Source: a plasmid
Sequence record: NZ_AP019754.1
DNA: 64,000 bases
Reading direction: 5' to 3' (one strand)
The notes under the pieces are model-generated. The model made no database searches. It was given only the letters and a program-made list of their open reading frames with translations, and was not told where the DNA came from. Shown in pieces: positions 6,665-39,354 of the stretch. Within the stretch, counting starts at the first letter, position 1. The number at the start of each line of letters is the position of its first letter. The position numbers and the translations under genes are program-made.

Positions 6665-6866
6665 GTTCCGGGCGTATGATTTGAGACCGGTGTGAAATAA
6701 ATATTTTTCTAATGTTTTATTTCTCTTGCCAGATTTTTGTGATTTTGCCTGTTTTTTGCCGATTTTGACGACGTTTGATGAACGTTCAATTGCATTTTTC
6801 TCACTTTTGCATTTCAAAATTCATCTCAGTTTTTAGAAAAACGGCAAAACAGTTTAAGGATATTAC

Positions 6867-11859: not shown

Positions 11860-11864
11860 GCACC

Positions 11865-13526: not shown

Positions 13527-13849
13527 TGAGTTTGTTGTTGGTCCTGCTGACCAGTCTGCTTACCTGTGCCGGTCAGCTCTGCCAAAAGCAGGCGGCGCGT
13601 CAGACCAACCGGGCACGACTTACAGGCTGGCTGGTTGCCAGCCTGGCGCTGCTGGCGCTGGGGATGGTCGTCTGGCTGTTGGTGCTGCAGCGGTTGCCCG
13701 TCAGCCTGGCTTACCCAATGCTGAGTATTAATTTCATCCTGGTCGCGCTGGCCGCGCGCTTTGTCTGGCAGGAAAGAATGACCCGCTGGCAGTGGATGGG
13801 CACCGTACTGATTGTGGTGGGCGTGGCCATCATAGGGAGTTACGCATGA
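13523..13849 (+). CDS. arnE: undecaprenyl-phosphate-Ara4N flippase subunit ArnE
   Basis: 108 aa, four-TM SMR-like protein, overlapping the arnT stop. Confidence 0.85.
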   Translation: MMSLLLVLLTSLLTCAGQLCQKQAARQTNRARLTGWLVASLALLALGMVVWLLVLQRLPVSLAYPMLSINFILVALAARFVWQERMTRWQWMGTVLIVVGVAIIGSYA

Positions 13850-14223
13850 GAGGCTACCTGCTGGCACTGTGCAGCGTCTTACTGGTGACGCTGGCCCAGC
13901 TGATGCTGCGCTGGGCAATGCACCAGTTGCCCGCGCTGCCGATGTTAATAACGCAATACGCGCTTTACTGGCTACCGCTGCTGGTGCTGTGTGGCGGTTT
14001 AACGGCGTATGCCTGCTCGATGGTGAGTTGGTTTTTAGCATTGCGCCACCTGCCGCTGAGCCGGGCTTATCCGCTACTGAGCATCAGCTACGTGCTGGTG
14101 TGGTTGCTGGCGATCAGCCTTCCGCTGTTTGCAGAGCCGTTCCATGCGGGCGCGATGGCGGGGGTATTTCTGATCCTGGTGGGTTTACTTTGTCTGTGCG
14201 TCAAGCCAGGAAAAACGAGCTGA
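13846..14223 (+). CDS. arnF: undecaprenyl-phosphate-Ara4N flippase subunit ArnF
   Basis: Starts at the ATG at 13846 (MRGYLLALCSVLLVTLAQLMLRW...), four-TM SMR-like, overlapping the arnE stop. The 143-aa track ORF has a spurious N-terminal extension. Confidence 0.85.
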   Translation: MRGYLLALCSVLLVTLAQLMLRWAMHQLPALPMLITQYALYWLPLLVLCGGLTAYACSMVSWFLALRHLPLSRAYPLLSISYVLVWLLAISLPLFAEPFHAGAMAGVFLILVGLLCLCVKPGKTS

Positions 14224-14323
14224 AAGCACGGTTTCCCTCTGAGCCATGTCAGGCAGTTAACGTCTGGCTATGCCGAAAGAGCAGGGGCAGGGTTGGCGAA
14301 CCGCGTTGATGCGTATCAAACAC

Positions 14324-14352
14324 AAACGCCGGCATTATGCCGGCGTTTTTTA
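14324..14352. terminator. bidirectional rho-independent terminator between arnF (+) and the chemoreceptor gene (-)
   Basis: 11-bp perfect stem AACGCCGGCAT/ATGCCGGCGTT with a 2-nt loop, followed by TTTTTTAT on the plus strand. It sits between convergent genes. Confidence 0.7.
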
Positions 14353-14361
14353 TCATCACAG

Positions 14362-16290
14362 TCAGAACGTTTCCCAGTTACCCTCAGCTGGACTGGGCTG
14401 ACGAAGAGAGACAGGCGCTTTGGTCACAGATTTTGCTGTGTTGTGGCTAACGGCCATTCCACTCTTGTTCGCGGGCAAACGGAACACGGCGACCGTTTTT
14501 TCCAGCTCTTCTGCCTGAGACTCCAGCGAGCTGGCGGCGGCTGAAGACTCTTCAACCAGTGCGGCGTTTTGTTGTGTTGTGGTATCCATTTCTGTCATTG
14601 CCTGAGCAATTTGTGATATGCCGCGGTTTTGCTCATCGGAAGCCGCCGCGATTTCGCTCATGATGTCCTTCACCTGCGTGACGGACAAGACTATTTCATC
14701 CATCGTCGATCCCGCCTGATCGACCAGCGTGGACCCTTCGTTAACACGATGCAGTGAATCACGGATCAGCGTCTCGATTTCCTTCGCCGCCACAGAACTG
14801 CGCTGCGCAAGATTTCTGACTTCGCCGGCGACAACTGCAAAACCCCGACCTTGCTCGCCCGCCCGTGCCGCTTCAACAGCTGCGTTCAACGCCAGAATAT
14901 TTGTCTGGAAAGATATTCCATTGATTACGCTGATGATTTCGCCAATTTTACCTGAGCTGGTTGTAATACCTTGCATGGTGGTGACTACGTTACGAATGAT
15001 GTCACCGCCCCGTCCGGCATTCGCCGATGCTTCCGTTGCAAGCTGGCTGGCATGGTGCGCGTTTTCAGCATTTTGCTTAACGGTGGAAGTTAACTCTTCC
15101 ATACTGGCAGCGGTTTGCACCACGGCGGCAGACTGCTGCTCAGTGCGCGATGACAAGTCCATATTACCGGCGGCGATCTCAGAAGAGGCACGCGCCACAC
15201 TGTTCACTCCGTCGCGCACGTTGGTGATGATGTTTTGCAGACTTTCGTTCATCACGCTGACCGCCTGCATCAACTGGCCCAGTTCGTCGCGCCGCGTGGT
15301 TGAAAGCGTGGCGGTAAGGTCGCCTTCAGAGATGCGCTGAGCCACGCTCAACGTTTCTTTCAGCGGTACCGTAATGGCGCGCGTAATACGCCAGGCAACC
15401 AACAGGCTGAGCAGGATACACAATGCGGCAACGACGGCGATCTGACGTTCAGCGTTAAGTAGAGCGCTGGTAGATTCAGATGCCTGGTAGTCAAAGAGCT
15501 CAGCCACAGATGTATTTAACTTTTCGGCCACTGCACTGAGTTGTGAAGAGGCAGCGGCCTCTGCACCCACGGCAGTCATATAGTCCGTAAAAGCCTGCTT
15601 TAACTGCGTCAGATCCGTTTTCTGCGTATTAAGGACCGCCTGGATCTCAGGAATGGCGAGCGCCGAAAGCTGAGTTCGGATCTGCTCAATGGACGTAATG
15701 TTACCGTAAATTTCGACTTTACTGGCTTCAGTGGGCTTATCAATAAAGCGCTCGACGTCACCGGCGACCTCCTTCAGTAATGAGGCTAAGCGTAATACCT
15801 GCAGCATTGCCTCTGGCTGAGCGGGAACATTCACCCCATCAAGACTTTGCCCAAGCGTGAGCAGATCGTTACCCTGAATAACCGCAGAAGCCGCAAAGGT
15901 CTTTTTGGAGGCGAGATAGAATGCCTGGCGCAGGGTTTGATAGCTTTGTAACGCGCTCCCCAGAACGTCAAGCTGTTGTTCACCCTGAGCGTTCCAGTCA
16001 AATTTCTTTAACGTGTCAAAATGGGCGCTTAATTCGTTGAGTGCGCGGGCGTTGACCTGAGCATACTGCTCGTCTTTCGTGTACTGATACAGCAAACGGT
16101 TCATGCGCGCTTTACTGAGTGTATTGACCATGTTGACGGTAACGTCTTGTTTTGCTGAATTCTCTTTAATGCTCTGGAAACCTTTAAAGGCCAGAAGCGC
16201 TATCGCGAGGGTCGCAACGATAAGCACGCCAAAACTCAACCCCAGCTTTTTTCCTATTTTCATATCGGAAAACGTACGTGTAATAAACAT
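14362..16290 (-). CDS. methyl-accepting chemotaxis protein (all-helical periplasmic sensor ~265 aa, HAMP, signalling domain, C-terminal NWETF pentapeptide)
   Basis: 642 aa with TM1, a long periplasmic domain, TM2 and HAMP. It carries the highly conserved signalling domain ([29 protein letters not shown]) and the CheR/CheB-tethering NWETF terminus. Confidence 0.9.
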
Positions 16291-16364
16291 AATTTCACCC
16301 TGACAGGAAGGAAAAAGAAAGCGTGTTTTGCAGCCTGTATTAACCCCACACTGCTTAATGAAAC

Positions 16365-16391
16365 TTATCGACTACCACCATGAAAACTTTA
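16365..16391 (-). promoter_or_regulatory. sigma-28 (FliA) class-III promoter for the chemoreceptor gene
   Basis: The minus strand reads TAAAGTTT-N11-GTCGATAA (consensus TAAAGTTT-N11-GCCGATAA). It lies about 75 nt upstream of the start codon. Confidence 0.7.
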
Positions 16392-16859
16392 AAGACAATT
16401 TGAAATATAAATTCACAACTGTGACATCAGTGTGTTTAAGCGCTGTTTTATGACATTTTTATGGTTTAGTATTAACAGTTAAGCCCATAATAGTTAGGGG
16501 GCGAATAATTTAAGCAGGTTTTTTGCTGACTTTTTTTTACATTTGAAACCAGAAAAAATATAAAATTTAAAAATCTTTACTAAGAATAAAGGATTTTAAA
16601 ATCAATAAGTTGGCTGATCTGCCTTCCGGCGGGTATTTATTAACATCTTAAAGATTTGATAATCACCCCTGAAACTTAAATTCGCAGAAAAAATACGTTA
16701 CTTTCTCTTAACATCGCCAGCTTAGTGATTAGCATTCTAGTTATAATTTGTATTAGTTAATTACAGAGATTAAATAATATTTCTATGAAACTCGCTCCCT
16801 GAGAGGTACGTTTAATCTGATTAATCTTTTTCAACTATTTGGAAACAGGCTAACCAAAC

Positions 16860-17399
16860 ATGCAATATATGACCTTTCTTCTTGCTGCATTAATTTTCTG
16901 CGGCTCTGCCGCCGCCGCGCCAGCGTCAGAACCCGTTTCACTACTCTCTCGGGCACTGCATGAGAGAATGCTGTTAATGAAGGATGTTGCAGCCTTCAAA
17001 AAAACGCACAATAAGCCGATTGAAGACCTGGCTCGGGAACAGGATGTGTTAGCCGAAGCCAAAGAGAAATCGGCAAAAGCTGGCCTCGATCCACAGTCTG
17101 TGACCGCTTTTTTTCAGGGACTGATGGATGCAAGTAAAGCGATTCAGTATCGTTATCTGGCAGACTGGTTGAGTGCTCCGCATGCCGTCCCACCCGCGAA
17201 AGATCTGGCAGAGTTGCGCCAGCAGATTAATCTGTTAGACGGACAGATTTTGCAAGCCATCAACCAGCAGCTGTCACAGGGTGGTTTTACCAAAGGCGAT
17301 TTAGCTCAGCTACATCAGCAGCTAAATGTCCAGCATCTGAGCGATAACGACATCAATAACGTTTTGCTGGGGCTGGAGCACATTCGGCTCAAAAAATAA
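16860..17399 (+). CDS. periplasmic (secreted) monofunctional chorismate mutase, AroQ-gamma class
   Basis: 179 aa with a cleavable signal peptide (LAALIFCGSAAAAPASE). Its length and AroQ helical pattern match the periplasmic chorismate mutases of Erwinia herbicola/Pantoea and Salmonella. Confidence 0.75.
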   Translation: MQYMTFLLAALIFCGSAAAAPASEPVSLLSRALHERMLLMKDVAAFKKTHNKPIEDLAREQDVLAEAKEKSAKAGLDPQSVTAFFQGLMDASKAIQYRYLADWLSAPHAVPPAKDLAELRQQINLLDGQILQAINQQLSQGGFTKGDLAQLHQQLNVQHLSDNDINNVLLGLEHIRLKK

Positions 17400-17672
17400 C
17401 GGTCCGCCGCGCGCGGCGGAATGCACGTCCAACATCCTTGAACGTCTTCTCATACGTTTGCAACGTGACAGGTTATCTACCTTAACGGGTACCGCAATTT
17501 TTACTCTAAGAATCCTTAACTCCCCGAAGCGTCAGCAGGAAGTTGACGCTTCGTAACCCGGCAATTGCGCCTTTCGCGGTGAAAGCACGCTCATCCGGGT
17601 TACCTGCGTTTCTTCATTGCTGAAAGCCTGCAGGGCTGTTTAAAGAAAGGTAGGGAATGTCACGATTTATAT

Positions 17673-17706
17673 GGCTGTAGCCGACTACGTCGGGCGTAAG
17701 GGGCCG
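17673..17706. repeat. REP-like palindromic repeat (GGCTGTAGCCGACTACGTCGGGCGTAAGGGGCCG)
   Basis: A near-identical copy (26/34) occurs at 42322-42355. Both are intergenic and share the palindromic core CCGACTACGTCGG. Confidence 0.5.
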
Positions 17707-17827
17707 TTCATCATCTGCGCCATCTTTTACGTCCTCTGGCGCCGTCATGCCGCTTAAGCGCCATTCGAAACACGGCTCTCACTGCAGGGGTTAATTCAGA
17801 TTAAAACGTCCGCTTTGTGCTGTGAGT

Positions 17828-18083
17828 TCAACCGATAGATGCAACACATTTATTGAACCCTTCTGCGGGTGATTCATAGTCTGGCGTTTTTCTCGGTCTT
17901 TCGTTGAGCTGCCTGGCAACACTGTTTAGTCTTTGCTGGCTGTGAACCGATAAGTCAGTTCCCTTTGGAAAATATTGTCTGAGCATCCTGTTCGTATTTC
18001 CATTTGAGCCATGTTGCAAGGGGATTGAGGATCGCAGAAGTAAATCTGGATGTCTGCTGCTACAGTAAACCGGGTGTGGCGGG
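17828..18083 (-). mobile_element. C-terminal remnant (~85 codons) of an IS30-family transposase; no catalytic domain, no inverted repeats seen
   Basis: Minus-strand frame open from 18083 encodes ...PLQHGSNGNTNRMLRQYFPKGTDLSVHSQQRLNSVARQLNERPRKTPDYESPAEGF. This matches the conserved IS30 transposase tail (GTNENTNGLLRQYFPKGTDLS...LNNRPRKTL). It is preceded by an in-frame stop, so only the extreme C-terminus survives. Confidence 0.6.
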
Positions 18084-18392
18084 TCATCAGTTCTTAAAGG
18101 AGCCTCACCCCTGATTGTTTAGAGCGTTGATACTCTCGGAAGCGCTTAAAAACAGGGCATAAATAACCGTCGCAAGCACTTTTTTTTTGACAGTGAGTAA
18201 AAAACTGAGGTTTTTAGCAATAATATTTTTTTAGAAAAAGTATGAAAGTGACGCCTTTTTCCAGGGGCAAAATTAAATGATCCTCCCACTTTATGTCACT
18301 GCTCACTTGCAGGCAGGTAACAACGAAACAAATCGATTGGAAATTAATCAACTGTGATAGTATGAGTTTCATTCCTCTAAAGGGTAACCACC

Positions 18393-18551
18393 ATGTCTCT
18401 TCTCGATTACGCCAGGAAGTTCATGAGTGCTCCGTCCACGGTAGTCTGTCCTGCCTGCGGTTTAAGTTCCTCCCAGCCTGCCTCAAAGATTCGCCTGAAA
18501 CAGGCTATGCTTTGTCCGGGATGTAAATCTCTCTTTGTCTCTCCACGTTAG
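18393..18551 (+). CDS. small (52 aa) four-cysteine zinc-ribbon protein (CPACG...CPGCK), hypothetical
   Basis: Manual translation gives MSLLDYARKFMSAPSTVVCPACGLSSSQPASKIRLKQAMLCPGCKSLFVSPR*. It is below the ORF-track size cut-off and lies immediately upstream of ndvB on the same strand. The overlapping 77-aa track ORF in another frame looks random. Confidence 0.35.
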   Translation: MSLLDYARKFMSAPSTVVCPACGLSSSQPASKIRLKQAMLCPGCKSLFVSPR

Positions 18552-18687
18552 CACCTGACTTTCAGATCCGACGATCTTCCCTGTTATACCGTAAAGACCT
18601 GGACCTGCAGCTGATAAATCCCTGATGCCTTACGCCCATCCTGAGAGAACGTTTCTGAACTGATTTCTCAACTGCTCCTGCGCGTTA

Positions 18688-21600
18688 ATGTCGCATGAGA
18701 GCAAGACTATGAAAATAAATCCTGGGGCATGGTTTCGCCGCGCCCGTATCATGACAAAAGCGCCAGGGCGCGCATCGTTTTCTTCCAATGACCCTATGGG
18801 GGAAAACACTCCGCGCCCGGAGCTGTTCTCAACGCCTCAGCTTGAGCGTTATGGTCAAAAGCTGGCGCATACGCATAAATTGTCGCCGGACAAGATGCCG
18901 TACTACCTGCTAAAACGATTAAGTGATAACGAAGCCGTTATTACACAAAACTGTTACACCCTTAACGCCGGTAAAAAAACCAGCATTATGCCCGCTGGGG
19001 AGTGGTTGCTGGACAACTACTACCTGATTGAGGAGCAAATTCGCAACGTCCGCCAGCACTTGCCGACCAGCTTTGGCAAAGGTCTTCCTTCACTCGCGTC
19101 TCCGCACCCTTGTCCGCGTATCTATGATATTGCTACCGAGGCGGTTGCGCATGGTGACGGACGCTGGGACACCGCCAGTCTGACCAGCTACATCGGCGCC
19201 TACCAGCAGGTCACGCCGCTGACGTTAGGGGAAGTCTGGGCGTTGCCCGGTATGTTGCGACTGGCGCTGATTGAAAATCTGCGTCGGGTCAGTATTGAGG
19301 TGGTTCAGGCTCAGCAGGAACGCAGCCTTGCTGACAGCTGGATAACGCGGATGACCGACTGCGCCGAACATGCGCCAGCTGACCTCATTCTGGTGATCGC
19401 CGACATGGCGCGTTCCCGGCCGCCACTGAGCAGTGCCTTTGTCGCGGAAATGGTTCGTCGTCTGCACGGGCAGGGGAATGCGCTGGCATTACCCTTGGGC
19501 TGGGTAGAACAACGCCTTGCCGAGCAAGGCCTCACAACCGAGTTACTGATCCATCGCTTCAACCAACAGCTTGCGGCCAGTCAACTTTCCGTCAGCAACA
19601 GTATTGCCGGGTTACGCCTGCTCAATGAAACCAACTGGGCTGATTTCGCCGAGAACATTAGTGTGGTTGAGCAGACGTTACGTCGCGATCCGGCGGGCAT
19701 ATATTCCTGTATGCATTTTGATACCCGCGATCATTATCGCCATGTGATTGAGATTCTGGCCCGGGAAAGTCAGCTCAGTGAGCCCGACGTGGCAAGCCGC
19801 ATACTGGCGTTGTCAGCAACAACCCAACCGGGCATGCCCTCTCATCACATTGGATATTATCTGATGGGAGAAGGGCGGCGTCAGTTAGATCACCATTTGT
19901 CGGTGGCGAGCTCTGGCCTCAAACGCTTACGGCACAGTCTCAACAGATATCCTCTGTTATCCTGGCTTGGGAGCATGAGCCTGTTAACCACGGCGGCCAC
20001 CGCCGCAATATTGTATGACACAGCGAGTCTGGGCATGGCCTGGTGGTTGTTACTGCTGGCTTTACCTTTGATTGTGGCGTTGAGTCAGTTGGTCAGCGAT
20101 ATACTCAGTGAAGCGACGACCCGCTTTCGGACTCCCCGACCGCTGCCACGAATGGACTTTTCTGACGGGATTCCGGTGACATCCTCCACGTTGGTGGCGA
20201 TCCCCTGCATGCTGACGAGTCACGCCGGCTTCAGCACGCTCCTCACAAGCCTTGAAGTGTGCTGGCTTGGCAACCAGGACGATAACCTCTGTTTCGCGCT
20301 TCTTACCGATTTTGCTGACGCGGCGACTGAAAGTACGGATGAACAACGCGCACTGTTTAGTCAGGCGATGTCAGAAATGCACCGGCTTAACCTGCGCTAT
20401 CCTTGCCGCCATCAGCGCTTTTATTTGCTCCACCGCTCGCCTGAATGGAATGCATCGCAGGGGATCTGGATGGGTTATGAACGCAAACGGGGCAAGCTGG
20501 CGTTGCTGAACAGCTGGTTACGTCATCCAGACACGCAATTTTCCAGCGTTGCGGGCATGCCCGCGAACCGCTTACCCGGACAGATTAAGTATGTCATCAC
20601 GCTGGACAGCGACACGCTCCTGCCACGTGATACCGCGCATAAGCTAGTCGCAACGATGGCGCATCCGTTGAACAAGCCGGAATACGATCCGCGATGTCAG
20701 CGGGTCGTCAAAGGATACGGTATTTTACAACCGGGGCTGGCAGAAGAGATGCCCCGTAACGGTCAGGGCCGCTATGCCGCGATGCGCAGCAGCGTACCGG
20801 GTAATAACCCTTATTCCATGATGTCTTCAGATATCTATCAGGATCTGTTTGAAGAAGGCTCCTTCGTCGGCAAGGGAATTTACGACGTGGATATTTTTGT
20901 CCAGGCCACGGCCAACACCTGCCCGGAAAATCTGGTGCTCAGTCACGATCTTCTGGAAGGATGCTATGCCCGCGCCGGGCTGCTGAGCGAGGTCTTACTC
21001 TACGAGCAGTACCCGAACAACTATCTGTCCGACGTCGCACGCCGTACGCGCTGGATCCGTGGCGACTGGCAACTGCTTAACTGGCTTAAGCTGCGGGTCC
21101 GAAAAGCGGATGGGACGCGGGATAAAAACCCATTGTCGGCGCTCTCTCGCTGGAAGCTGTTTGATAACCTGCGCCGCAGCCTGGTCGCCCCCGCATTACT
21201 GGTGCTGCAGTTTAGCGCGCTGCTGTGGGTGCCGAATCCGGGATACTGGCTGGGCGTTCTGGCCCTGGTCTGGCTGCTGCCTGCTGCGCTCTGTATCCTT
21301 ATCGATCTTGCCAACAAGCCGCATCGTCGTCCTCTGAGGCAACATCTGGTGCTGGTTACGGCGGGGGCACTGAAGCGACTTTCCCGGATCGGACTCAATT
21401 TTATTTTATTACCCCATGAGGCGGGCTATTCGCTGTATGCGATCGCCGTGACGCTCTGGCGCCTTGGCATCAGCCAGCGCAACCTGACGCAATGGTCCAG
21501 CCACAGTCCGGACAGCCTTCAGTCCCAACTTTCTGCCTTTCGTTTTTATCGGGTAATGTGGCTGAATGTGGCTTGTGGTGCAGCACTCACGCTTCTGACG

Positions 21601-24600
21601 CTGCTACTGGCGCCACAATGGCTGACCCTGGCCCTGATCATCAGCCTGTCATGGTGCCTGGCACCGCTATTATTGAGTGGACTGAGCCGCCCGCCAGCGC
21701 GTAAGGCGTTTCTGCCTGACCCGCAACAGAAACGACTTCTGCGTCAGACCAGCAGAGAAATCTGGGCGTTTTTCGAGACCTTCGCGACGGCGCAGGAAAA
21801 CTGGCTTCCCCCGGACAATTATCAGGAAATCCCTGAGCCAAAAATCGCGCATCGCACGTCACCCACCAATATCGGACTGTCCTTGCTGGCGAACCTTACG
21901 GCCTGGGATTTCGGTTATCTCTCTGGCGCGGATGTTCTGCAGCGCATCACGCAGACGCTAGACACGCTGGATAAGATGGAGCATTACCGGGGACATTTGT
22001 ATAACTGGTATGACACCCGCACGCTTGCGCCACTCAGCCCGCGTTATGTTTCCAGCGTTGACAGCGGCAATATGGCCGGCCACTTACTGACACTGCGCGA
22101 AGGGCTGTCAGCCATGCGTCATCAGCCCGTTTTCAACGACGTACGCCTACTGGAGGGGCTGAATGATACTCTGCATGTGCTGGAAAAATACTGGGGCCAT
22201 AACGCGCCAGCCAGCCTGGGCGTGCTGCGCACGCAGTGCCTTAATGCTGCATCGTTACCTTCAGGGCAGTTGTTAAGCGAACTCAAAAAAATGCAGGTGC
22301 ACGGCAACGAACTGGCCCGGCTGTCTCAGGAGGAAAGCCGCGTGGTGGTGCGCTGGACGGCGCATCTGGTCAGTCAACTGCAGCAGCTCTGTGATGAATG
22401 GACGACGCTGCTTGGCTGGCTACCGGTGACATATCATGCACAGGCCCTGCCTACGCTGAGTGAGCTGGCTGGCGGAATCACCCTTGAAGCGGTTATCGCG
22501 CCGACAGCCGTTATGACCCAGGCCCGGCGGCGACTGGCGATTATCAGCGAACTTGAACAACGTCTCGCTGACCATGCGCGAATGGATTTTACGTTTCTGT
22601 ATAACACGGCTACCAGCATGCTAAGTGTCGGCTACAACTGCGATACCAACACGCTGGATAAAAGCCACTACGATCTTTTGCCTTCAGAAATCCGCCTGAC
22701 CAGTTTTGTCGCTATTGCGACGAATCAGCTGCCGCTTAAAAGCTGGTATGCACTTGGCCGACTGTTTACCACCATCGATCGTGAAACTGCCCTGATGTCC
22801 TGGAGCGGTTCAATGTTTGAATATCTGATGCCGAATCTGGTGATGCCAACCTGGCACGGCAGTCTGCTGGATGAGATGAGTAAATCTGCGGTAATCAGGC
22901 AGATAAACTGGGGCAAAGAGCGTGGCGTGCCGTGGGGCGTCTCTGAGTCTGGCTACCATGCGTTTGATGTTCAACATAATTATCAGTATCAGGCATTTGG
23001 AGTACCCGGCCTTGGTCTCCGGCGCGGACTCGCCGACGATATGGTGGTAGCCCCTTATGCCACGCTGCTGGCGCTGTTGGTTTCACCGCAAAAGGCCTGC
23101 GACAATCTGCTCAGGCTGCAGGAAAACGGCGCGCGCGGCGAATATGGTTTTTATGAAGCGTTGGATTATACGCCATCGCGACTGGCAACCGGGCAGCTTT
23201 TCTTGGTTGTTCAATCCTGGATGGCGCACCATCAGGGCATGGCTTTCCAGGCGCTGGGGCATCTGCTGTTTGATGCCCCTATGGCCGGGCGATTCATGTC
23301 GAGTCCGGCGTTCAGATCGGCCAGCCTGCTGTTACAGGAGCGCGTACCCGATGAGGTTGAACTCTACAGCCCGCGTCGTCATTTTGAGTCCCATGAGGGA
23401 AGAATTAAGCCTGTGCGCTATGAACCGCGAATCTTCACGCATGCGGATACGCCGACCCCCGAGATACAATTATTGTCCAACGGGCATTACCATCTAATGA
23501 TAACGCCAGGCGGTGGGGGATACAGTCGCTGGAACAACATCGCATTGACACGCTGGCGCAGCGACAGCACCCGTGATAACTGGGGAACGTTCTGCTATAT
23601 CCGGGATCCGCTCACTGACGAGGTGTGGAGCAATACCTGTCACCCTCTGGGGGCCAGTGCGGACATCAGCGATGAAATCATCTTTACCGATGCGGGGGCC
23701 GAGTTCAGGCGCGTGCTCGGCTCGCTCAGCGTGAAAACCCGGGTTGTGGTCTCACCGGAAGATGACATCGAACTGCGTCGTGTCACCCTGATGCATCGAG
23801 GCCGAAGCCCACGAACACTCGAGCTGACGACCTATGCTGAAGTGGTGCTTGCCTCGGACATCAGCGATCAGGCGCACCCGGCGTTCAGCAACCTGTTTAT
23901 TCAGACGGAAGCCGATCCCAGGCATGATGCCATTTTGTGCCACCGGCGTGCACGCTCGCCGGATGAACAGAGCCCGTATCTGTTTCATATGATGGTGGTG
24001 CATGGCGATTGTTCAGAGAACGTTTCATTCGACACCGACAGAGCGGGATTCATCGGCAGGGGTAAAAGCCCGGCTGATGCCCAGGCGGTCAGCATGAACG
24101 GGCCGCTCAGTAACACGTCCGGCGCCGTGCTGGATCCGATACTGTCGATACGCCACGCGATTACACTCCAGCCCGGACAGCCGGTGACCATTGATATCGT
24201 TTTTGGCGTCAGCGAAAACCGTCAGCAAAGCCTCGCGCTGATGGAAAAATACCGCGATCATCCTATTGCCGATCGCGTGTTTGAACTGGCCTGGTCCCAC
24301 AGTCTGGTTGTGTTACGGCAGATGAATGCCAGCGAAGATGACGCAACTTTGTTCAACCGCCTCGCCAGCGCGGTACTTTATCCCTGTCAGGAACTGCGCG
24401 GTGACGAACAGGCCATTAGCCGAAACCGACGTGATCAGTCGGGCCTGTGGGGTTGGGGGATCTCAGGTGATTTGCCGATTGTGCTGATCAGCCTGACCAG
24501 CGAGGAAAAAATTGCTTCTGTCACCACGCTGATTCAGGCACATCGCTACTGGCGACTGAAAGGGCTGGAGGTGGATCTGGTGATTCTTAATAACAGCCCT

Positions 24601-27291
24601 GGAGGCTACCAGCAGGCGCTGCAGACGCAGATTATGGATTTAATCTATGCCGGTTCTGAAGCCAGCCTGTTAGATAAACCCGGGGGGATTTTTGTCCGTA
24701 ACGGTGAGCATTTGTCTGCCGAAGACAAGCAGTTGCTGATGAGCGTGGCCTGTCTGAGCCTGGACGATCGCGCTGACGGCATCAATGAACAACTTAACCA
24801 GCGTATTCATGCGACAAAAAAACGCGTCAGGCCTTTTGTGCCCTCGGTGACGTCAGAGAGCAATCATCACGCCGACTGGATACCGGAAACTCACCTGTTG
24901 CGCCATTTCAACGGATACGGTGGCTTTTCTCAGGACGGTCGCGAGTATCAGATCCTGCTGAGAGAAGACCAACCGACGCCAGCGCCCTGGTCAAACGTGC
25001 TGGCAAACGAGAACTTTGGCAGCGTGATTTCTGAAGCAGGCCAGGCCTACAGCTGGTTCGAAAATGCGCACGAATATCGCTTAACGCCGTGGGAAAACGA
25101 TCCGGTAAGCGATCGTAGCGGGGAGGCATTCTATCTGCGTGATGAAGAAAGCGGCGCATGCTGGTCACCCATGACCCTGCCCGTGCGCGGTCAGGGCGAT
25201 TATCTTACCCGCCACGGTTTTGGTTACAGCGTGTTTGCCCACCGTGAAAATGGACTGGACAGCGAACTGACAGTCCTGGTGGACGAGCAGGCGCCGGTTA
25301 AGCTTGCAATACTGAAGCTCAGCAACCATTCGGGCCGTACACGCAAATTGTCTGTCACCGGCTACGTGGAATGGACACTTGGGGCAACGCGCAACCACTC
25401 TGCTGCACATATCATCACGCATTCGCCCGGCCTCGCGGGGGGAAGTGCGGTCATGGCCAATAACTTCTACGGTGCTAATGGCGGGGAACGCACCGCCTTT
25501 TTCGCCGTTAACGATCCTCAGAGTACGGTAACGGGCGACCGCCGCGAGTTTATCGGGCGTAATGGTTCACTGCGCGCCCCGGCCGCCATGACGCTTCGCA
25601 GACTCTCGGGTAAAACGGGAGCCGGGCTTGATCCCTGTGCCGCGTTACAGTCGACAACCTCCCTTATTGACGGTGACCAGAAAACCTATGTTTTTGTCCT
25701 CGGCGTGGCCGATAACCCGGCACAGGCACAGGAAACGCTTGCCCGTTTTCTGCATGAGGATAATGCGCGTCAGGCGCTGAATCAGGTTCACCATTTCTGG
25801 CACAACGTGCTTGATAAGGTCGTTGTGCAGACGCCCGACAGCAGCGTTGATTTGCTGGTAAACGGCTGGCTGCTGTATCAGACATTAGCCTGCCGCATCA
25901 TGGCGCGCAGCGGCTACTATCAGTCCGGTGGGGCATTTGGTTTCCGCGATCAGTTGCAGGATACGCTGGCGCTGAGCCACGTTGCACCGGAGCGACTGCG
26001 CAGCCAGATCCTGCTGTGTGCCTCACGGCAGTTTATTGAGGGGGATGTGCAACACTGGTGGCATCCTCCGCAGGGTAATGGCGTGCGAACCCGCTGTTCG
26101 GATGACTACCTGTGGCTTCCGCTTGCGGTTTGTCACTATGTGGATACAACGGGAGATACTGGCGTGCTGGCGCAGCAGATTCCCTATCTTGAAGGGCGTC
26201 CGCTCAAGCCCGGCGAAGAATCTGTTTATGATACGCCCGTTATCAGCCACCTCGAAGAGACGTTGTGGCAGCACTGCGTAAAAGCGATTGAGCGGGGGCT
26301 AAACTTCGGCCAGCACGGCCTGCCGCTAATGGGGGCAGGTGACTGGAATGACGGGATGAATCTGGTCGGTATTGAAGGCAAAGGTGAAAGCGTCTGGCTC
26401 GGCTTTTTCCTCTACGATATTTTGCAACGCTTTGCGGCGCTGGCTGAACAGCGCCAGGATGAACGCGTGGCAGCATTGTGCTATTCAGAAGCGTTGAGCC
26501 TGCAAAAAAATCTCGAATCTTACGCCTGGGATGGTGCATGGTATCTCCGCGGCTACTTTGACGATGGTACGCCGCTGGGGACAAGAGAATCGCAGGCGTG
26601 CTGGATCGATGCGATTGCACAAAGCTGGTCCGTTTTGTCCGGCGCAGCTGATCCAGTGCGCAGTGCGCAGGCTATGCAGTCACTCGACAGCTATCTGGTG
26701 GATAACGATGCAGGATTGATCAAGTTGCTAACGCCACCGTTTGATGGTCATGGTCCTAATCCCGGTTACATACAGGGTTATCTTCCGGGTGTGAGGGAAA
26801 ACGGCGGGCAATACACGCATGGCGCCATCTGGGCGGTCATGGCGTTTGCCCGGATGGGACAAAAAGCGCGAGCGTGGCAACTATGGTCAATGATCAATCC
26901 GGTAAACCACACGCTGCAGACTGAAGGCGTTAACATCTACAAGGCGGAGCCCTATGTGATGAGTGCAGATGTGTACAGCGTTGCACCTCATACCGGCCGT
27001 GCCGGATGGAGCTGGTACACCGGTTCCGCAGGCTGGGCCTACCGTCTGGTGACTGAAGAGTTACTCGGAATAAAACGGCACGGAGAGACGCTGGTTATTC
27101 GCACTCACTTACCTGATGACTGGCCTTCGATCAGCCTGACCTATCAACACGGGAGCAGTCAGTATTTCATTAGGATTTCTCGTCACGACGGTGAACCTCG
27201 AGTGACTATGGATGGCACGCTCCTGCCGGATGACAGCATTCCTTTGCGGGATGATGGACAAAATCACAATGTCGATATTATTCAGCGCTGA
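18688..27291 (+). CDS. ndvB: cyclic beta-1,2-glucan synthase (NdvB/ChvB/Cgs family; GT84 glycosyltransferase + GH94 phosphorylase-like domains)
   Basis: 2867-aa single ORF. The N-terminus (ELFSTPQLERYGQKL...PAGEWLLDNYYLIEEQIRNV) and overall size and architecture match rhizobial/Brucella cyclic glucan synthases. It has a multi-TM region, a central GT domain and large C-terminal GH94-like domains. Confidence 0.85.
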   Translation: MSHESKTMKINPGAWFRRARIMTKAPGRASFSSNDPMGENTPRPELFSTPQLERYGQKLAHTHKLSPDKMPYYLLKRLSDNEAVITQNCYTLNAGKKTSIMPAGEWLLDNYYLIEEQIRNVRQHLPTSFGKGLPSLASPHPCPRIYDIATEAVAHGDGRWDTASLTSYIGAYQQVTPLTLGEVWALPGMLRLALIENLRRVSIEVVQAQQERSLADSWITRMTDCAEHAPADLILVIADMARSRPPLSSAFVAEMVRRLHGQGNALALPLGWVEQRLAEQGLTTELLIHRFNQQLAASQLSVSNSIAGLRLLNETNWADFAENISVVEQTLRRDPAGIYSCMHFDTRDHYRHVIEILARESQLSEPDVASRILALSATTQPGMPSHHIGYYLMGEGRRQLDHHLSVASSGLKRLRHSLNRYPLLSWLGSMSLLTTAATAAILYDTASLGMAWWLLLLALPLIVALSQLVSDILSEATTRFRTPRPLPRMDFSDGIPVTSSTLVAIPCMLTSHAGFSTLLTSLEVCWLGNQDDNLCFALLTDFADAATESTDEQRALFSQAMSEMHRLNLRYPCRHQRFYLLHRSPEWNASQGIWMGYERKRGKLALLNSWLRHPDTQFSSVAGMPANRLPGQIKYVITLDSDTLLPRDTAHKLVATMAHPLNKPEYDPRCQRVVKGYGILQPGLAEEMPRNGQGRYAAMRSSVPGNNPYSMMSSDIYQDLFEEGSFVGKGIYDVDIFVQATANTCPENLVLSHDLLEGCYARAGLLSEVLLYEQYPNNYLSDVARRTRWIRGDWQLLNWLKLRVRKADGTRDKNPLSALSRWKLFDNLRRSLVAPALLVLQFSALLWVPNPGYWLGVLALVWLLPAALCILIDLANKPHRRPLRQHLVLVTAGALKRLSRIGLNFILLPHEAGYSLYAIAVTLWRLGISQRNLTQWSSHSPDSLQSQLSAFRFYRVMWLNVACGAALTLLTLLLAPQWLTLALIISLSWCLAPLLLSGLSRPPARKAFLPDPQQKRLLRQTSREIWAFFETFATAQENWLPPDNYQEIPEPKIAHRTSPTNIGLSLLANLTAWDFGYLSGADVLQRITQTLDTLDKMEHYRGHLYNWYDTRTLAPLSPRYVSSVDSGNMAGHLLTLREGLSAMRHQPVFNDVRLLEGLNDTLHVLEKYWGHNAPASLGVLRTQCLNAASLPSGQLLSELKKMQVHGNELARLSQEESRVVVRWTAHLVSQLQQLCDEWTTLLGWLPVTYHAQALPTLSELAGGITLEAVIAPTAVMTQARRRLAIISELEQRLADHARMDFTFLYNTATSMLSVGYNCDTNTLDKSHYDLLPSEIRLTSFVAIATNQLPLKSWYALGRLFTTIDRETALMSWSGSMFEYLMPNLVMPTWHGSLLDEMSKSAVIRQINWGKERGVPWGVSESGYHAFDVQHNYQYQAFGVPGLGLRRGLADDMVVAPYATLLALLVSPQKACDNLLRLQENGARGEYGFYEALDYTPSRLATGQLFLVVQSWMAHHQGMAFQALGHLLFDAPMAGRFMSSPAFRSASLLLQERVPDEVELYSPRRHFESHEGRIKPVRYEPRIFTHADTPTPEIQLLSNGHYHLMITPGGGGYSRWNNIALTRWRSDSTRDNWGTFCYIRDPLTDEVWSNTCHPLGASADISDEIIFTDAGAEFRRVLGSLSVKTRVVVSPEDDIELRRVTLMHRGRSPRTLELTTYAEVVLASDISDQAHPAFSNLFIQTEADPRHDAILCHRRARSPDEQSPYLFHMMVVHGDCSENVSFDTDRAGFIGRGKSPADAQAVSMNGPLSNTSGAVLDPILSIRHAITLQPGQPVTIDIVFGVSENRQQSLALMEKYRDHPIADRVFELAWSHSLVVLRQMNASEDDATLFNRLASAVLYPCQELRGDEQAISRNRRDQSGLWGWGISGDLPIVLISLTSEEKIASVTTLIQAHRYWRLKGLEVDLVILNNSPGGYQQALQTQIMDLIYAGSEASLLDKPGGIFVRNGEHLSAEDKQLLMSVACLSLDDRADGINEQLNQRIHATKKRVRPFVPSVTSESNHHADWIPETHLLRHFNGYGGFSQDGREYQILLREDQPTPAPWSNVLANENFGSVISEAGQAYSWFENAHEYRLTPWENDPVSDRSGEAFYLRDEESGACWSPMTLPVRGQGDYLTRHGFGYSVFAHRENGLDSELTVLVDEQAPVKLAILKLSNHSGRTRKLSVTGYVEWTLGATRNHSAAHIITHSPGLAGGSAVMANNFYGANGGERTAFFAVNDPQSTVTGDRREFIGRNGSLRAPAAMTLRRLSGKTGAGLDPCAALQSTTSLIDGDQKTYVFVLGVADNPAQAQETLARFLHEDNARQALNQVHHFWHNVLDKVVVQTPDSSVDLLVNGWLLYQTLACRIMARSGYYQSGGAFGFRDQLQDTLALSHVAPERLRSQILLCASRQFIEGDVQHWWHPPQGNGVRTRCSDDYLWLPLAVCHYVDTTGDTGVLAQQIPYLEGRPLKPGEESVYDTPVISHLEETLWQHCVKAIERGLNFGQHGLPLMGAGDWNDGMNLVGIEGKGESVWLGFFLYDILQRFAALAEQRQDERVAALCYSEALSLQKNLESYAWDGAWYLRGYFDDGTPLGTRESQACWIDAIAQSWSVLSGAADPVRSAQAMQSLDSYLVDNDAGLIKLLTPPFDGHGPNPGYIQGYLPGVRENGGQYTHGAIWAVMAFARMGQKARAWQLWSMINPVNHTLQTEGVNIYKAEPYVMSADVYSVAPHTGRAGWSWYTGSAGWAYRLVTEELLGIKRHGETLVIRTHLPDDWPSISLTYQHGSSQYFIRISRHDGEPRVTMDGTLLPDDSIPLRDDGQNHNVDIIQR

Positions 27292-27293
27292 CC

Positions 27294-27317
27294 GTCCGCT
27301 CTGTGCCAGGAGCGGAC
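27294..27317. repeat. stem-loop GTCCGCT-CTGTGCCAG-GAGCGGAC, 3 nt after the ndvB stop; member of a small repeat family
   Basis: It shares 16+7 identical nucleotides with the element at 34721-34744 and 12-13 nt with 31305-31335. Perfect 7-8 bp stem. Confidence 0.6.
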
Positions 27318-27429
27318 ATGGATTAAATCGGAATGACCTTAGCGGCAGACAGGATACAGGCCATCACGTGCGGTAATAAACTCGCATGAGTTCGGTAAAG
27401 TCATAGGTGTGTTTTGACAGATTTGAATA

Positions 27430-27702
27430 TTATAAGCTGCTGTCAGTTTTACCCTCGTTCAGGCTATTGATGATGTGAAGGTATGGCACAGACTGCCTCT
27501 CAAATCCTGTGCTGGTAAGCTTTTTCAACCACGATATGGCCTCAAAAATTTTACACAGGCGGTTGTCGCTACAGCTGCCTGTCGCCATACTTTTCAGCTG
27601 TTCCATAAGGGAATTGATGTCAATTTCCTTATCAGTCAGCGCAAGATACAGGGCGGCTTCGCCAATTATGATGAGTCCTCTTTCTTCGTCTCGAAGTGAC
27701 AT
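27430..27702 (-). CDS. small helical protein, tentatively YmgB/AriR-family (biofilm/acid-resistance connector-like)
   Basis: 90 aa. The pattern GEAALYLALTDKEIDINSLMEQL resembles the AriR core ([23 protein letters not shown]). The call is weak. Confidence 0.35.
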   Translation of the reverse strand: MSLRDEERGLIIIGEAALYLALTDKEIDINSLMEQLKSMATGSCSDNRLCKIFEAISWLKKLTSTGFERQSVPYLHIINSLNEGKTDSSL

Positions 27703-28938
27703 ATCTCCCTCCGTAAGTTGATTTAGGCACTGGCATAACTGACTGTCCTGTCTCAGAAGATTTCTTCATTCCTGAATAACTCAGCCGTTTATTCCTGTGA
27801 AATATAACCCGCTAAATACCTGTATACTGTTCACTGTTTTCCTGTCGCTTTAGACAGTTAGTGCAGTTATCGGAACGTGAAATTCAACGTAACAATCAAT
27901 TGTGTGTATAAAATAAGCGAGCACTTCCCTTATCAACACTTTATCCGGACTTTCTTTTGGTTATCAGGTTTTCCGGTGGTTGTGCTTCTTTACCAGACTA
28001 TCGTCACAGTCATCTCTTTTCTTTAGCGTCAAATCAATGCTTTTAACTATCACTGCGACAGGCATGCTTCCTTATTCAAGGAAATCCATCCGCGAATGCA
28101 GCAGATGAATGCATCTTTACGGGTGCGGCAGGGGTAAACAGAAATGAATTAAGAAGATGTTAGCGTTCAGTTCGGGCTAAAACGCCGCGCAAGAGCGTTT
28201 TTAAATTTGTTATAATGCTAAAGCGCCCTGGCGAAAAGAAGCTCCCTCAGGTACGGGAGCAAATGTTTCACATTTCATTTTAAAAGGCCCGGGGAGTGCA
28301 CGTAATTATTAACGCCCCGTCGCTGAAAAACTTTAGTTTCAGAGGCACTTTATCAGTAAAGTTCTGGTTACAGAGCGGATTCTGCAGTGCATCCCTGTTT
28401 ATACTGAACAGTACCGTTCGCGGTCTGAGGTAAAAGTGTCTGGTTTCGCTGTTTCCTATATGCACTTTAGCATACAAAAAAAAACCTACTCAAGAGGTGA
28501 GGCGAACCAGTTGTGTGACTCCGGGCTTCTTTAACGGCGGGCTCAGCAGACACCTGCACGTTTAAATTATGCTTAAAATCAATATGCGAGTAAGCGAGGC
28601 GGTAAATAAGAGGCTTAATCTGGCTGACCTGTCTTTAATTTACCCCAAAATCTTCAGAAAATGCATTGCATTCCGGCACGGTAATGCGGAATTACTTTTT
28701 TATTTTGTGAATCCCGCGCTTTACTGATTATACGCTTTAAGTTGATGTGTTCAGTTTCGTTTGGCTTATGGTGTAAATATTATTTAATTTTATTTATCTG
28801 ACCCCGACTCGTTAAGAATAAAAGTTAGATCCCAAACAATAACCTGAAAGACAATTAATCCCCCTTGTCAGTAAAGGGGGGATTAAGTGATTCTGATCAA
28901 TGAAAACGATTATTTTATAAAGTCACGGAAAACAGGTG

Positions 28939-28965
28939 TAAATAATGCACCTTTCTAGCCGATAC
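28939..28965 (+). promoter_or_regulatory. sigma-28 (FliA) promoter for the second chemoreceptor gene
   Basis: TAAATAAT-N11-GCCGATAC versus consensus TAAAGTTT-N11-GCCGATAA. It lies about 60 nt upstream of the ATG at 29026. Confidence 0.55.
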
Positions 28966-29025
28966 CGGATTGAACCCTGAGAGGATATAAATCTCCGGGT
29001 ACTATTCAACTCCGGGGTAATTTAA

Positions 29026-30942
29026 ATGAATATTATAAGAAAAGTTACAGATTTAAAGATAGGCGCCAAACTGGGACTGGGATTCACGCTGGTCATACTG
29101 GCCTCCGTCATCATATCGGCGCTGGCGTTTCGCTGTTTTTTAAGCATTCAGGAAAATTCGGCCAAGCGCGATGTCACCGTTCAGATGCTCGACACGCTGG
29201 CGAAAGCCAGACTTAACCGCACGCTTTTTCAGTACACCCGCGACAAAAAGTTTATTGAGATTAACGGCGAGGCGATGAATCAGCTTTTTGTCTTACGAAC
29301 CAGTCTTAATAAATACTCCTGGTCGGCGGAAGGAGGGGAAAGGCTTTCTGTTCTGAGCGGTATCCTGACGCAGTATCAGGAAAAGCGTCAGGCTTTTCTC
29401 GAGAGCAGTGACAGTGCCGCGCGCGCGCTGAGCGAAATACACACGCTGGGCCTGGCATCACTGGGAGAAAAACTGGCCACCGGCCAGGCTTCGGCTCCTG
29501 CCGACGTTGTTGCGCCCCTACTTTCCCTCAGCTTCAGGACAGAGCAGGCGGCATTTTTTGTCCAGGAGTTCATCAGAAAGCCGGACGCTTCCACGCTGGA
29601 TAAATTCAGTGAAGTCAGGGACGCCATTGCTCCGCAGGTAAACCAGCTCAGAGGCGTTTCCGGCAGCGCACTCGCCGCAGTAGTGGCGGACGTGGAGCAA
29701 AAAATGGCATCGGGCTCCGCACTGCTGAATAATTATCTCCTTTCTGTGCGGACTGAAAAGCAGGCCTCAGATGAAATGACCGCAGCGGCAGGTAAGCTGA
29801 ACCAGTCCATCACGGACCTCGCGTTCTTTCAGTCAGAGATGGCTGAGAAGTATATCCAGACCGCGCTCTGGCAGATCGGTTTTGCAACACTCGCCTGTAT
29901 TGTTCTCAGCCTCCTGATTGCCTGGCGAATGACGCGAAGTATCACCGTTCCGCTGAGAGAGACGCTGTTGTCTGCACAGCGCATTGCTGAAGGTGATCTG
30001 ACCTCAGACATCACTACCTCTCGCACCGATGAGCTTGGCGAGCTGATGACCGCCGTGGGCGCGATGAACCAGAGCCTGCGTGACATTATCTCCCGTGTCA
30101 GGGACGGAGTGAATAACGTCGCCCGCGCCTCCTCCGAGATTGCAGCGGGTAACACCGACCTGTCTTCACGCACGGAACAGCAGTCGGCAGCGGTGGTTGA
30201 AACTGCTGCCAGCATGGAGGAGCTGACCTCCACCGTTAAGCAGAATGCGGAGAATGCCCATCACGCCAGCCAGCTGGCCACCGAGGCGTCACACAATGCC
30301 AGCCGCGGCGGGGAAATCATCAGTGACGTGATCAACACGATGGGAGGGATCAGCCAGAGCTCAGGTAAAATCGGCGAAATCATCTCCGTCATTAACGGTA
30401 TCGCTTTCCAGACGAATATCCTGGCGCTCAACGCCGCCGTCGAGGCTGCAAGAGCGGGAGAACAGGGAAGGGGATTCGCAGTAGTTGCCGGTGAAGTCCG
30501 AAATCTGGCACAGCGTAGTTCACTTGCGGCAAAAGAAATCGAGGCGCTGATAAGTGAGTCACTGAGCCGGGTGAGTAACGGTACCGAACTGGTTAACCGT
30601 GCCGGTGTCACGATGGAGGATATCGTCAAGTCTGTGACCCAGGTCAGGGACATCATGGGCGAAATTGCCGCTGCGTCGGACGAACAGAACCGCGGAATAA
30701 CCCAGATTGCGCAGGCCATGACAGAGATGGACACCACAACTCAGCAGAATGCCGCGCTGGTTGAAGAGTCATCCGCAGCAGCCAGCAGCCTCGAGGATCA
30801 GGCTCATGAGCTTGAAAAAACCGTAGCCGTGTTCCGTGTTCCTGCTTCCGGCCTGTTGATGCCGGAGGTTAAGGTGCCCACGCCGGCGTTAAAACACCCG
30901 TCATCCCTCAGGGCGTCGGAAGCAAACTGGGAAACATTCTGA
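29026..30942 (+). CDS. methyl-accepting chemotaxis protein, paralog of the 14362-16290 gene (helical periplasmic sensor, HAMP, NWETF tail)
   Basis: 638 aa with the same architecture. The signalling domain is about 90 percent identical at protein level to the first MCP, and it ends in ...EANWETF. Confidence 0.9.
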
Positions 30943-30952
30943 CAGCCATACT

Positions 30953-30986
30953 GCAGCCAGAGCCGTCTGTAACGACATCTGGCTGC
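30953..30986 (+). terminator. possible terminator hairpin after the chemoreceptor gene
   Basis: GCAGCCAGA-N16-TCTGGCTGC followed by ATCTTTCAG. The T-tract is weak. Confidence 0.35.
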
Positions 30987-31005
30987 ATCTTTCAGTCATT
31001 TATCG

Positions 31006-31304: not shown

Positions 31305-31335
31305 CACAGCCAGGAGCGGACATTGCTAACGATAG
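31305..31335. repeat. partial copy of the GCCAGGAGCGGAC / AGCGGACATTGCTAA repeat family
   Basis: CACAGCCAGGAGCGGACATTGCTAACGATAG. It shares a 13-mer with 27305-27317 and a 15-mer (AGCGGACATTGCTAA) with the minus strand at 34668-34684. Confidence 0.5.
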
Positions 31336-36942: not shown

Positions 36943-36960
36943 TGGTAATTCTCCATAGGC

Positions 36961-38331: not shown

Positions 38332-38348
38332 CGCTGTGTACCTCCGCG

Positions 38349-39353: not shown

Positions 39354-39354
39354 A

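Follow-up and report, generated by a model that had tools for sequence, protein, structure and literature searches.

A stretch of 64,000 nucleotides of plasmid DNA from record NZ_AP019754.1 (the window, to which all positions refer unless another record is named) carries a gene, cgs, at 18709..27291 on the + strand, whose 2860-residue product is, by sequence comparison, a synthase of the Cgs/ChvB/NdvB type. Directly upstream lie a small ynfU gene and a 105-nt leader that is nearly invariant among related enterobacterial loci. Taking the results together, we consider it probable (about 0.75) that the protein is a synthase of cyclic beta-1,2-glucan, as its homology indicates, that its expression is controlled by the leader, and that the glucan is exported by an ATP-binding cassette (ABC) exporter encoded on the chromosome. 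The gene itself is already known: databases name it, and several genome papers list it among candidates for plant association. New here are the ynfU gene and the conserved leader, both of which are absent from an earlier annotation of the window made from its letters and open reading frames (ORFs), referred to below as the sequence-only reading.

Architecture and catalytic residues of the synthase

An uninterrupted ORF of 2867 codons spans 18688-27291 (+), and the sequence-only reading took all of it as the gene. The ORF is indeed intact; its start is not the one proposed. The ATG at 18688 is not kept in the orthologous loci of Leclercia, Enterobacter and Escherichia coli, which read AACGTC at this place (ACG replaces ATG). 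The start that is invariant across the orthologous loci is ATGAAAAT at 18709, with GAGAG 8-12 nt upstream, and the NCBI protein of Pantoea ananatis, identical to the translation (100%) and entered as "cyclic beta 1-2 glucan synthetase [Pantoea ananatis]", is 2860 residues long. We therefore place the coding sequence at 18709..27291, an assignment that draws on the ORF, Pfam, phmmer against the PDB, the NCBI protein and the start-codon alignment.

Against the PDB, phmmer returned a single collinear match of residues 67-2839 to residues 51-2812 of Agrobacterium tumefaciens Cgs (8rf0; 1960 bits; structures 8rf0/8rf9). The cyclase region also matched Thermoanaerobacter italicus CGS in its isolated cyclization domain (8wy1) with an E-value of 1e-126, and stand-alone cellobiose and chitobiose phosphorylases covered only residues ~2064-2865, the last ~800. 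Pfam placed two GH94 supersandwich domains, a GH94 catalytic domain (400 bits) and, mid-protein in the cyclase region, a Glycoamylase domain on the ORF; a profile search of the protein against NCBIfam matched no model. Beyond the GH94 part, ~2000 residues carry the GT84, transmembrane (TM) and cyclase modules. By these comparisons the ORF is a Cgs/ChvB/NdvB-type synthase in which GT84, cyclase and GH94 are all present, and not a stand-alone GH94 phosphorylase. The best matches are not phosphorylases lacking GT84 but run collinear with complete Cgs, which bears out the sequence-only reading in its assignment of an NdvB/ChvB-type protein with GT84 and GH94.

Residue-level alignments to 8rf0 allowed the catalytic positions to be read off (numbering of the 2860-residue protein), with the roles taken from the work on the A. 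tumefaciens enzyme (Sedzicki et al. 2024, PMC10901819) and, for the catalytic glutamates of the cyclase, from a review of cyclizing enzymes (PMC11842490). In the GT84 catalytic core (20308..21054, +; placed by the alignment and motif positions), the UDP-coordinating D527 of A. tumefaciens corresponds to D534, the DxD pair D624/D626 to D633/D635 (TLDSDT), the priming Y694 (GIDPY, in the IF1-homology loop) to Y702 (GNNPY), the catalytic base D739 to D747 (SHDLLEG), and the RW motif R773-W774 to R781-W782. The cyclase, or GH189 transglycosylase, region (21685..23370, +; Pfam and alignments) retains S1101/D1104 as S1115/D1118 (VDSGN), the acid/base E1300 as E1327 and the nucleophile E1386 as E1413 (PWGVSE). 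Within the GH94 module, made up of the second supersandwich and the catalytic domain (24979..27069, +; Pfam and alignments), D2393 is found as D2414 (FRDQLQD) and the catalytic acid D2528 as D2548 (GDWND). Every residue that mutagenesis or structure has shown to be important in the A. tumefaciens and T. italicus enzymes is thus kept here. Across 115 full-length enterobacterial homologues the catalytic motifs are kept in 99 to 115, the lower counts being due to the strictness of the regular expressions.

Hydrophobic segments, located by Kyte-Doolittle hydropathy only, lie at residues 440-458, 824-842, 847-865 and 949-992 (two helices) and flank the GT domain. They amount to five clear helices plus a likely weaker sixth before residue 440, as compared with the six-helix anchor of the solved enzyme, and the protein is accordingly predicted to be membrane-anchored and to face the cytoplasm. 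In overall design it resembles A. tumefaciens Cgs/ChvB, Sinorhizobium NdvB and Brucella Cgs, being of the same length class (2860 against ~2830 residues) and sharing with the A. tumefaciens enzyme the module order N-terminal domain, TM, GT84, cyclase and GH94; identity of the alphaproteobacterial proteins to the Pantoea protein is ~40% among the matches listed. With the T. italicus enzyme (GH189) it shares the cyclase region together with the nucleophile and acid/base glutamates, although that enzyme was characterised as an isolated domain only.

By homology with the A. tumefaciens enzyme, the GT84 module would use UDP-glucose to glucosylate its own Tyr702 and then elongate a beta-1,2 chain in the cytoplasm, while GH94 would shorten over-long chains by phosphorolysis. 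The GH189 cyclase (E1327/E1413) would transglycosylate the chain onto itself, releasing a ring of ~17-25 glucoses and restoring the Tyr-linked primer. A cyclic beta-1,2-glucan with a degree of polymerization of ~17-25 is thus the predicted product, and it may serve an osmotic or plant-associated role.

Enterobacteria also make glucans by another route. OpgG/OpgH and Cgs both give rise to beta-1,2-linked periplasmic glucans from UDP-glucose, but OpgH is a GT2 enzyme unrelated to Cgs that is thought also to translocate its product, and the enterobacterial osmoregulated periplasmic glucans are not cyclic but linear and branched. OpgD2 is listed in the pan-genome of P. ananatis (2014); the Opg and Cgs routes would therefore coexist in this species.

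Replicon and distribution of cgs

The locus had been assigned to an enterobacterial chromosome, which has to be corrected: the region is plasmid-borne. Window positions 14000-31000 match NZ_CP014208.1, a 331-kb plasmid from P. ananatis strain R100, along 100% of their length at 99.3% identity, and seven further P. ananatis plasmids (274-339 kb) match most of this 17-kb query around cgs. The arn, rut and flagellin genes of the window, which had suggested a chromosome, are therefore plasmid cargo here. The R100 plasmid carries RepB/ParA/ParB, the crtE-Z carotenoid cluster, a type VI secretion system and many chemoreceptor and cyclic di-GMP genes. From its RepB/ParAB and crt cluster we take the plasmid to be of the LPP-1 type, the 'large Pantoea plasmid' reportedly defined by De Maayer and colleagues in 2012. 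As a side observation, positions 3830-16280 and 314831-327281 of the R100 record list the same accessions at both ends (the chemoreceptor WP_064374295.1, FhuE, H-NS, an integrase, ParD and Map), which suggests a terminal assembly overlap of ~12 kb or more; the plasmid is therefore probably smaller than 331 kb.

The view that such a gene is unexpected in enterobacteria proved overstated. A protein search found homologues of 56-88% identity in more than 20 enterobacterial genera, including Pantoea, Erwinia, Duffyella, Klebsiella, Raoultella, Enterobacter, Lelliottia, Leclercia, Kluyvera and Salmonella, as well as Serratia, Dickeya, Brenneria, Lonsdalea, Rahnella, Rouxiella and Buttiauxella. For many of them the databases already use the name 'cyclic beta 1-2 glucan synthetase', and a single cluster named after Klebsiella variicola comprises 4136 member sequences. 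PLSDB holds 223 plasmid records with cgs (96 from Klebsiella, 56 from Pantoea, 20 from Escherichia, 14 from Enterobacter and 10 from Citrobacter), about half of them predicted to be conjugative. Among 5426 complete E. coli genomes, 61 gave a cgs match, 7 of these with the complete unit of ynfU, leader and cgs. Three partial E. coli matches among those listed begin ~2 kb into the gene (query base 3655), and the chromosomal copy of E. coli G3/10 is frameshifted; the E. coli copies that are without the leader may be truncated or divergent at their 5' end.

Outside the Enterobacterales, full-length relatives among the matches listed share 40-51% identity and come from Beta- and Gammaproteobacteria, Bacteroidota, Planctomycetota, Verrucomicrobiota, Acidobacteriota and further phyla, with Alphaproteobacteria at ~41%.

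The gene has been noticed in print since 2008. It was noted on island IE06 of Klebsiella pneumoniae 342 (2008), with 37.8% identity reported for the 342 homologue (PMC2453333), and on pENT638-1 of Enterobacter sp. 638 (2010), where Serratia proteamaculans 568 was named as well. The P. ananatis pan-genome (2014) lists it as PANGEN_05563 in 8/8 strains with the best match on P. vagans pPag3, and a homologue was noted in S. grimesii (2018). All four notices rest on annotation. The proteins of pENT638-1, Klebsiella 342 (KPK_4954), pPag3 and S. proteamaculans 568 are orthologues of the one described here (61-86% identity), and many enterobacterial NdvB orthologues are likewise plasmid- or island-borne, noted as plant-association candidates and known by annotation.

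A ynfU gene and a conserved leader precede cgs

The gene upstream of cgs (18393..18551, +) encodes a 52-residue YnfU-like protein, MSLLDYARKF...CPACG...CPGCK..., with two CxxC motifs (CPAC and CPGC). It matches the model of the YnfU family of zinc-binding proteins, NF038384 (PF23499), along profile positions 1-51 of 52 and, with 62.9 bits, clears the cut-off of 36. It ends 136 nt before the 2867-codon ORF, and the record of the R100 plasmid annotates it. In E. coli, YnfU is known as an orphan small protein of the Qin prophage. A ynfU homologue stands directly 5' of cgs in all eight enterobacterial loci found via the Cgs protein (E. coli plasmid and chromosome, Leclercia, Enterobacter, two from Raoultella, RIT691 and L003) and also in Dickeya, Buttiauxella and Erwinia sorbitola. 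It is kept upstream in every enterobacterial locus of the clade with at least 68% identity. The same search of non-enterobacterial cgs loci gave chance-level matches only (E >=0.75), and no description of a link between ynfU and cgs was found in searchable papers.

In the interval from ynfU to cgs, the initial ~50 nt vary, and the last 105 nt are near-invariant across genera whose Cgs proteins are 68-79% identical. This leader (18604..18708, +) lies between a -10-like TTATACC (18584-18590) and the start of cgs, and cgs is probably transcribed from a promoter of its own just upstream of it. Over 89 distinct loci, mean column identity is 0.91 in the leader, compared with 0.58 at third codon positions of cgs and ynfU and 0.50 in the spacer. 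The parts of the leader outside the 21-nt core used for ascertainment (18638-18658) still show column identities of 0.84-0.95. The leader is thus under strong constraint at the nucleotide level.

Scanning metagenome contigs with the core retrieved 104 contigs, and cgs follows the core in 106/106 loci with enough downstream sequence. Of 113 leader-containing loci, 107 have ynfU in front of the leader. In E. coli, the leader occurs only in the 7 genomes with a full-length cgs, in whose records it is unannotated. There is no second copy of the core in the window, and an Rfam covariance search of both strands of 16000-29200 gave no match at E<=1. The leader and ynfU are both absent from the distant Serratia, Rahnella, Symbiopectobacterium and P0076 loci, the Serratia/Rahnella branch standing at ~61% identity, and the non-enterobacterial loci likewise differ from the Pantoea locus in having neither. 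A covariance model of the leader, run on the Serratia, Rahnella, Symbiopectobacterium and non-enterobacterial loci, detected no diverged copy. The leader would be a cis-regulatory element confined to the enterobacterial clade in which cgs is linked to ynfU.

RNAalifold proposed two internal hairpins and, closing them, a possible stem P1 (18607-18620 paired to 18662-18675). Pairing in P1-P3 is retained in 98% of cells, with covariation above both shuffled and slid controls; the sole informative pair, 15/72, occurs as four pair types (UG 30, UA 12, AU 6 and CG 4). The 3' strand of P1 overlaps a UGCUC (18673-18677), for which a possible alternative partner is GAGCA in the ribosome-binding region, part of the Shine-Dalgarno stretch GAGAGCA that begins at 18697. 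Such a helix is compatible with all sequences. A further hairpin at 18683-18700 has two registers, each favoured by different variants. The RNA, most likely at translation initiation, is the more likely level at which the leader acts, and for the specific mechanism we hypothesise a switch between P1 and the anti-Shine-Dalgarno pairing.

Two coding explanations of the conservation were considered separately. A 12-codon upstream ORF (18625-18663; MPYAHPERTFLN) was rejected, its third codon varying non-synonymously and its frame being shifted in Dickeya. On the reverse strand, reading by eye found no conserved antisense ORF in the leader.

In Enterobacteriaceae (E. coli, Leclercia and Enterobacter) the genes form part of a larger unit, in the order csp (-), cspF (+), ynfU1, leader, cgs and then further genes. 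These are a small hypothetical gene (-), ynfU2, another hypothetical gene and lpxP, which encodes a cold-induced palmitoleoyltransferase, often with an H-NS gene nearby. The Pantoea unit consists of ynfU1, leader and cgs only. The composition of the Enterobacteriaceae unit suggests a mobile low-temperature or envelope-adaptation island. We can only tentatively extend this to a broader proposal, which we regard as less likely to be right than wrong: that the leader is an undescribed cis-regulatory RNA of riboswitch, thermosensor or protein-binding type, in which P1 competes with the anti-Shine-Dalgarno pairing, and that together with YnfU, a small zinc-ribbon protein, it controls a plasmid-spread cgs. 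The glucan would then be a conditional envelope trait, triggered by temperature, osmolarity or the host and exported by something other than a linked Cgt, and in Enterobacteriaceae the module would include the cold-shock genes and lpxP.

Proposed leader control and export weighed against alternatives

Several results weigh against a leader-controlled cyclic-glucan synthase served by a chromosomal exporter. No demonstration of a cyclic glucan in any member of the Enterobacterales was found in the searchable literature, and neither the window nor the whole 331-kb R100 plasmid encodes an exporter of the Cgt/ChvA/NdvA type. For the leader, shuffled sequences reach predicted folding energies as good as its own (z 0.09, -0.85 and 0.49), and the helix that would sequester the Shine-Dalgarno region shows no covariation beyond shuffles. 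Nearly all proposed pairs are invariant and therefore say nothing either way. A role of the leader at the DNA level, through operator sites, also has to be reckoned with, although we think it doubtful.

In that alternative, the 105-nt block is kept as DNA, for repressor or activator sites (possibly for YnfU) or for relief of H-NS-type silencing, and not as a structured RNA. Besides the folding energies, it can draw on the invariance of most leader positions, paired or not, on the palindromes CAGCTG and AACGTT within the leader, and on the co-occurrence of ynfU with the leader and their joint absence from the Serratia/Rahnella clade. However, near-identity over 105 nt is much longer than usual operators, and the leader begins at about the transcript start expected from the -10-like box and ends at the start codon. 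Furthermore, pair 15/72 covaries with four pair types, and the most variable part of the leader is a loop segment (18629-18637) whose stem is fixed. On this balance the DNA-level explanation is possible but distinctly the less likely of the two, and we retain control by the leader RNA as the preferred reading.

As for export, the window contains no fused exporter joining a transmembrane domain (TMD) to a nucleotide-binding domain (NBD) as in Cgt/ChvA/NdvA; the one large ABC protein there, at 60563-62428, is an ATPase of peptide-importer type with two NBDs. The absence of an NdvA/ChvA-like exporter near cgs, already pointed out in the sequence-only reading, thus holds for all 64 kb, and it extends to the entire R100 plasmid, for which the annotation of the remaining 267 kb was read and the DNA scanned for ORFs with Walker-A and signature motifs. 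The ABC genes of that plasmid are importer-type ATPases and one 296-residue, TMD-only 'ABC six-TM' gene. The latter adjoins a TetR regulator (NZ_CP014208.1, 155393-156962) and, being without an NBD, is the sole exporter-type ABC membrane domain there. The flanks of 15 enterobacterial cgs loci that were inspected contain no ABC exporter either. The Pantoea gene thus differs from those of A. tumefaciens, Sinorhizobium and Brucella in being plasmid-borne, with cgt/chvA/ndvA neither linked nor on the replicon, and in having its product assigned by homology.

The missing neighbour, which led the sequence-only reading to call export unexplained, is no peculiarity of this locus. Of 89 cgs loci from many phyla, only 2 have ABCB-type half-transporters nearby, as judged by a heuristic of Walker-A, signature and TM segments. 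Both were rejected as Cgt candidates: they are generic ABCB/MsbA-like proteins, and Cgt is not among the best 60 PDB matches of either. Linkage of the exporter to cgs is therefore not to be expected. If the glucan is exported to the periplasm, as we infer, the ABC exporter would be encoded elsewhere; since none is found on the plasmid, its gene would have to be chromosomal.

A second alternative accepts an active enzyme and dispenses with a dedicated Cgt, the product either staying in the cytoplasm, as a compatible solute or store turned over by GH94, or leaving through a non-orthologous transporter. The lack of a fused ABC exporter in the window, on the plasmid and beside the 15 enterobacterial loci fits this view, as does the movement of the cgs module between Enterobacteriaceae hosts on conjugative plasmids with no transporter gene attached. 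Against it stands the rarity of ABCB-type neighbours across loci, which makes an unlinked cgs and cgt the normal state; the two genes are also unlinked in Brucella. Moreover, the role proposed for length control by GH94 is to match the product to the transporter (PMC10901819). We consider this alternative unlikely, more so than a DNA-level role of the leader, and continue to favour export by a chromosomal ABC exporter.

It is very improbable that cgs is a decaying, non-functional passenger of a mobile element. The setting could suggest one: an IS30 fragment lies 300 nt upstream of ynfU, the flanks are AT-rich, the downstream region is variable with a synteny break immediately after the gene, and the E. 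coli G3/10 copy is frameshifted. Yet the 8.6-kb ORF is intact with its catalytic motifs all kept, and all P. ananatis strains of the pan-genome (8/8) have the gene. Its composition (GC 0.56, GC at third codon positions 0.62) lies inside the range of its neighbours (0.57-0.71 at third positions) and therefore gives no sign of recent import. Column conservation is 0.58 at third codon positions against 0.85-0.87 at first and second positions; third positions thus diverge far more, consistent with purifying selection.

Least credible of all is a catabolic multi-domain GH94 or glucoamylase-like phosphorylase, as implied by database names ('cellobiose phosphorylase', 'glucoamylase family protein', 'GH36-type glycosyl hydrolase domain-containing protein') that stem from the GH94 and Glycoamylase domains only, no NCBIfam model naming the protein; the architecture refutes it, since the stand-alone enzymes reach only the last ~800 residues and the N-terminal 2000 align with Cgs and take in the DxD, catalytic base and RW motif of GT84 as well as the priming tyrosine and the membrane segments.

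As a gene call, this result changes little. Cyclic beta-1,2-glucans are host-interaction factors in Brucella, Agrobacterium and rhizobia, and hundreds of plasmids from Klebsiella, Enterobacter, E. coli and Pantoea carry the gene. The remaining interest lies in a widespread plasmid gene characterised by annotation alone, in an export step that is unaccounted for on the replicon carrying the synthase, and in the conserved ynfU-leader-cgs unit, which offers a concrete handle on regulation and, for YnfU, a first genomic setting in which to place its function.

Flanking features

The sequence-only reading described the surroundings of cgs largely correctly. Upstream lies the remnant of an IS30-family transposase, its C-terminal ~65 residues in two frames (17831..18087, -). 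The two frameshifted pieces match the last 67 positions of model NF033563 (positions 201-230 and 229-267 of 267, with 48 and 20 bits) and contain no intact ORF; these scores fall below the full-length cut-off because the pieces are fragments. Two chemoreceptor genes (MCPsignal and HAMP domains) flank the region at 14362-16290 (-) and 29026-30942 (+), and are, as had been stated, inverted paralogues, divergently oriented and 57.9% identical.

The repeat-family hairpin that begins 3 nt after the stop codon of cgs (27294..27317, +) was likewise confirmed. It resembles repetitive extragenic palindromes and has the form GTCCGCTC-tgtgccag-GAGCGGAC, with an 8-bp stem and the loop TGTGCCAG. A second copy with one mismatch lies at 34721-34744 and a half copy at 31309-31321; the family, GTCCGCTYTGTGCCAGGAGCGGAC, is sited after genes. 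A related hairpin is found near 34678-34703. Most P. ananatis plasmids are collinear with the query only up to its base 13318, which is window position 27317 and the last base of the hairpin, and the hairpin therefore marks the boundary of a recombination or variable region.

The segment beyond it (27318-29025) is an AT-rich (~44% GC), strain-variable stretch of 1.7 kb that, among the listed P. ananatis plasmids, is shared in full length with R100 only. It contains a hypothetical ORF of 90 residues (27430-27702, -) that matches no family and has no homologue at the other cgs loci. On the upstream side, long AT-rich intergenic stretches (44-48% GC) at 16291-16859 and 17400-18392 surround a gene for a periplasmic-type chorismate mutase (16860-17399) and the IS30 remnant, and a strong GC hairpin (17403-17420) follows the mutase gene.

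Further downstream, 9 kb beyond cgs, window positions 36247-41856 (-) encode a ROK-family protein, a glucose-6-phosphate dehydrogenase, a 6-phosphogluconate-dehydrogenase-like protein and an 833-residue GH15 protein of glucodextranase type. A link of the latter to beta-1,2-glucan is not expected, because GH15 enzymes act on alpha-glucans.

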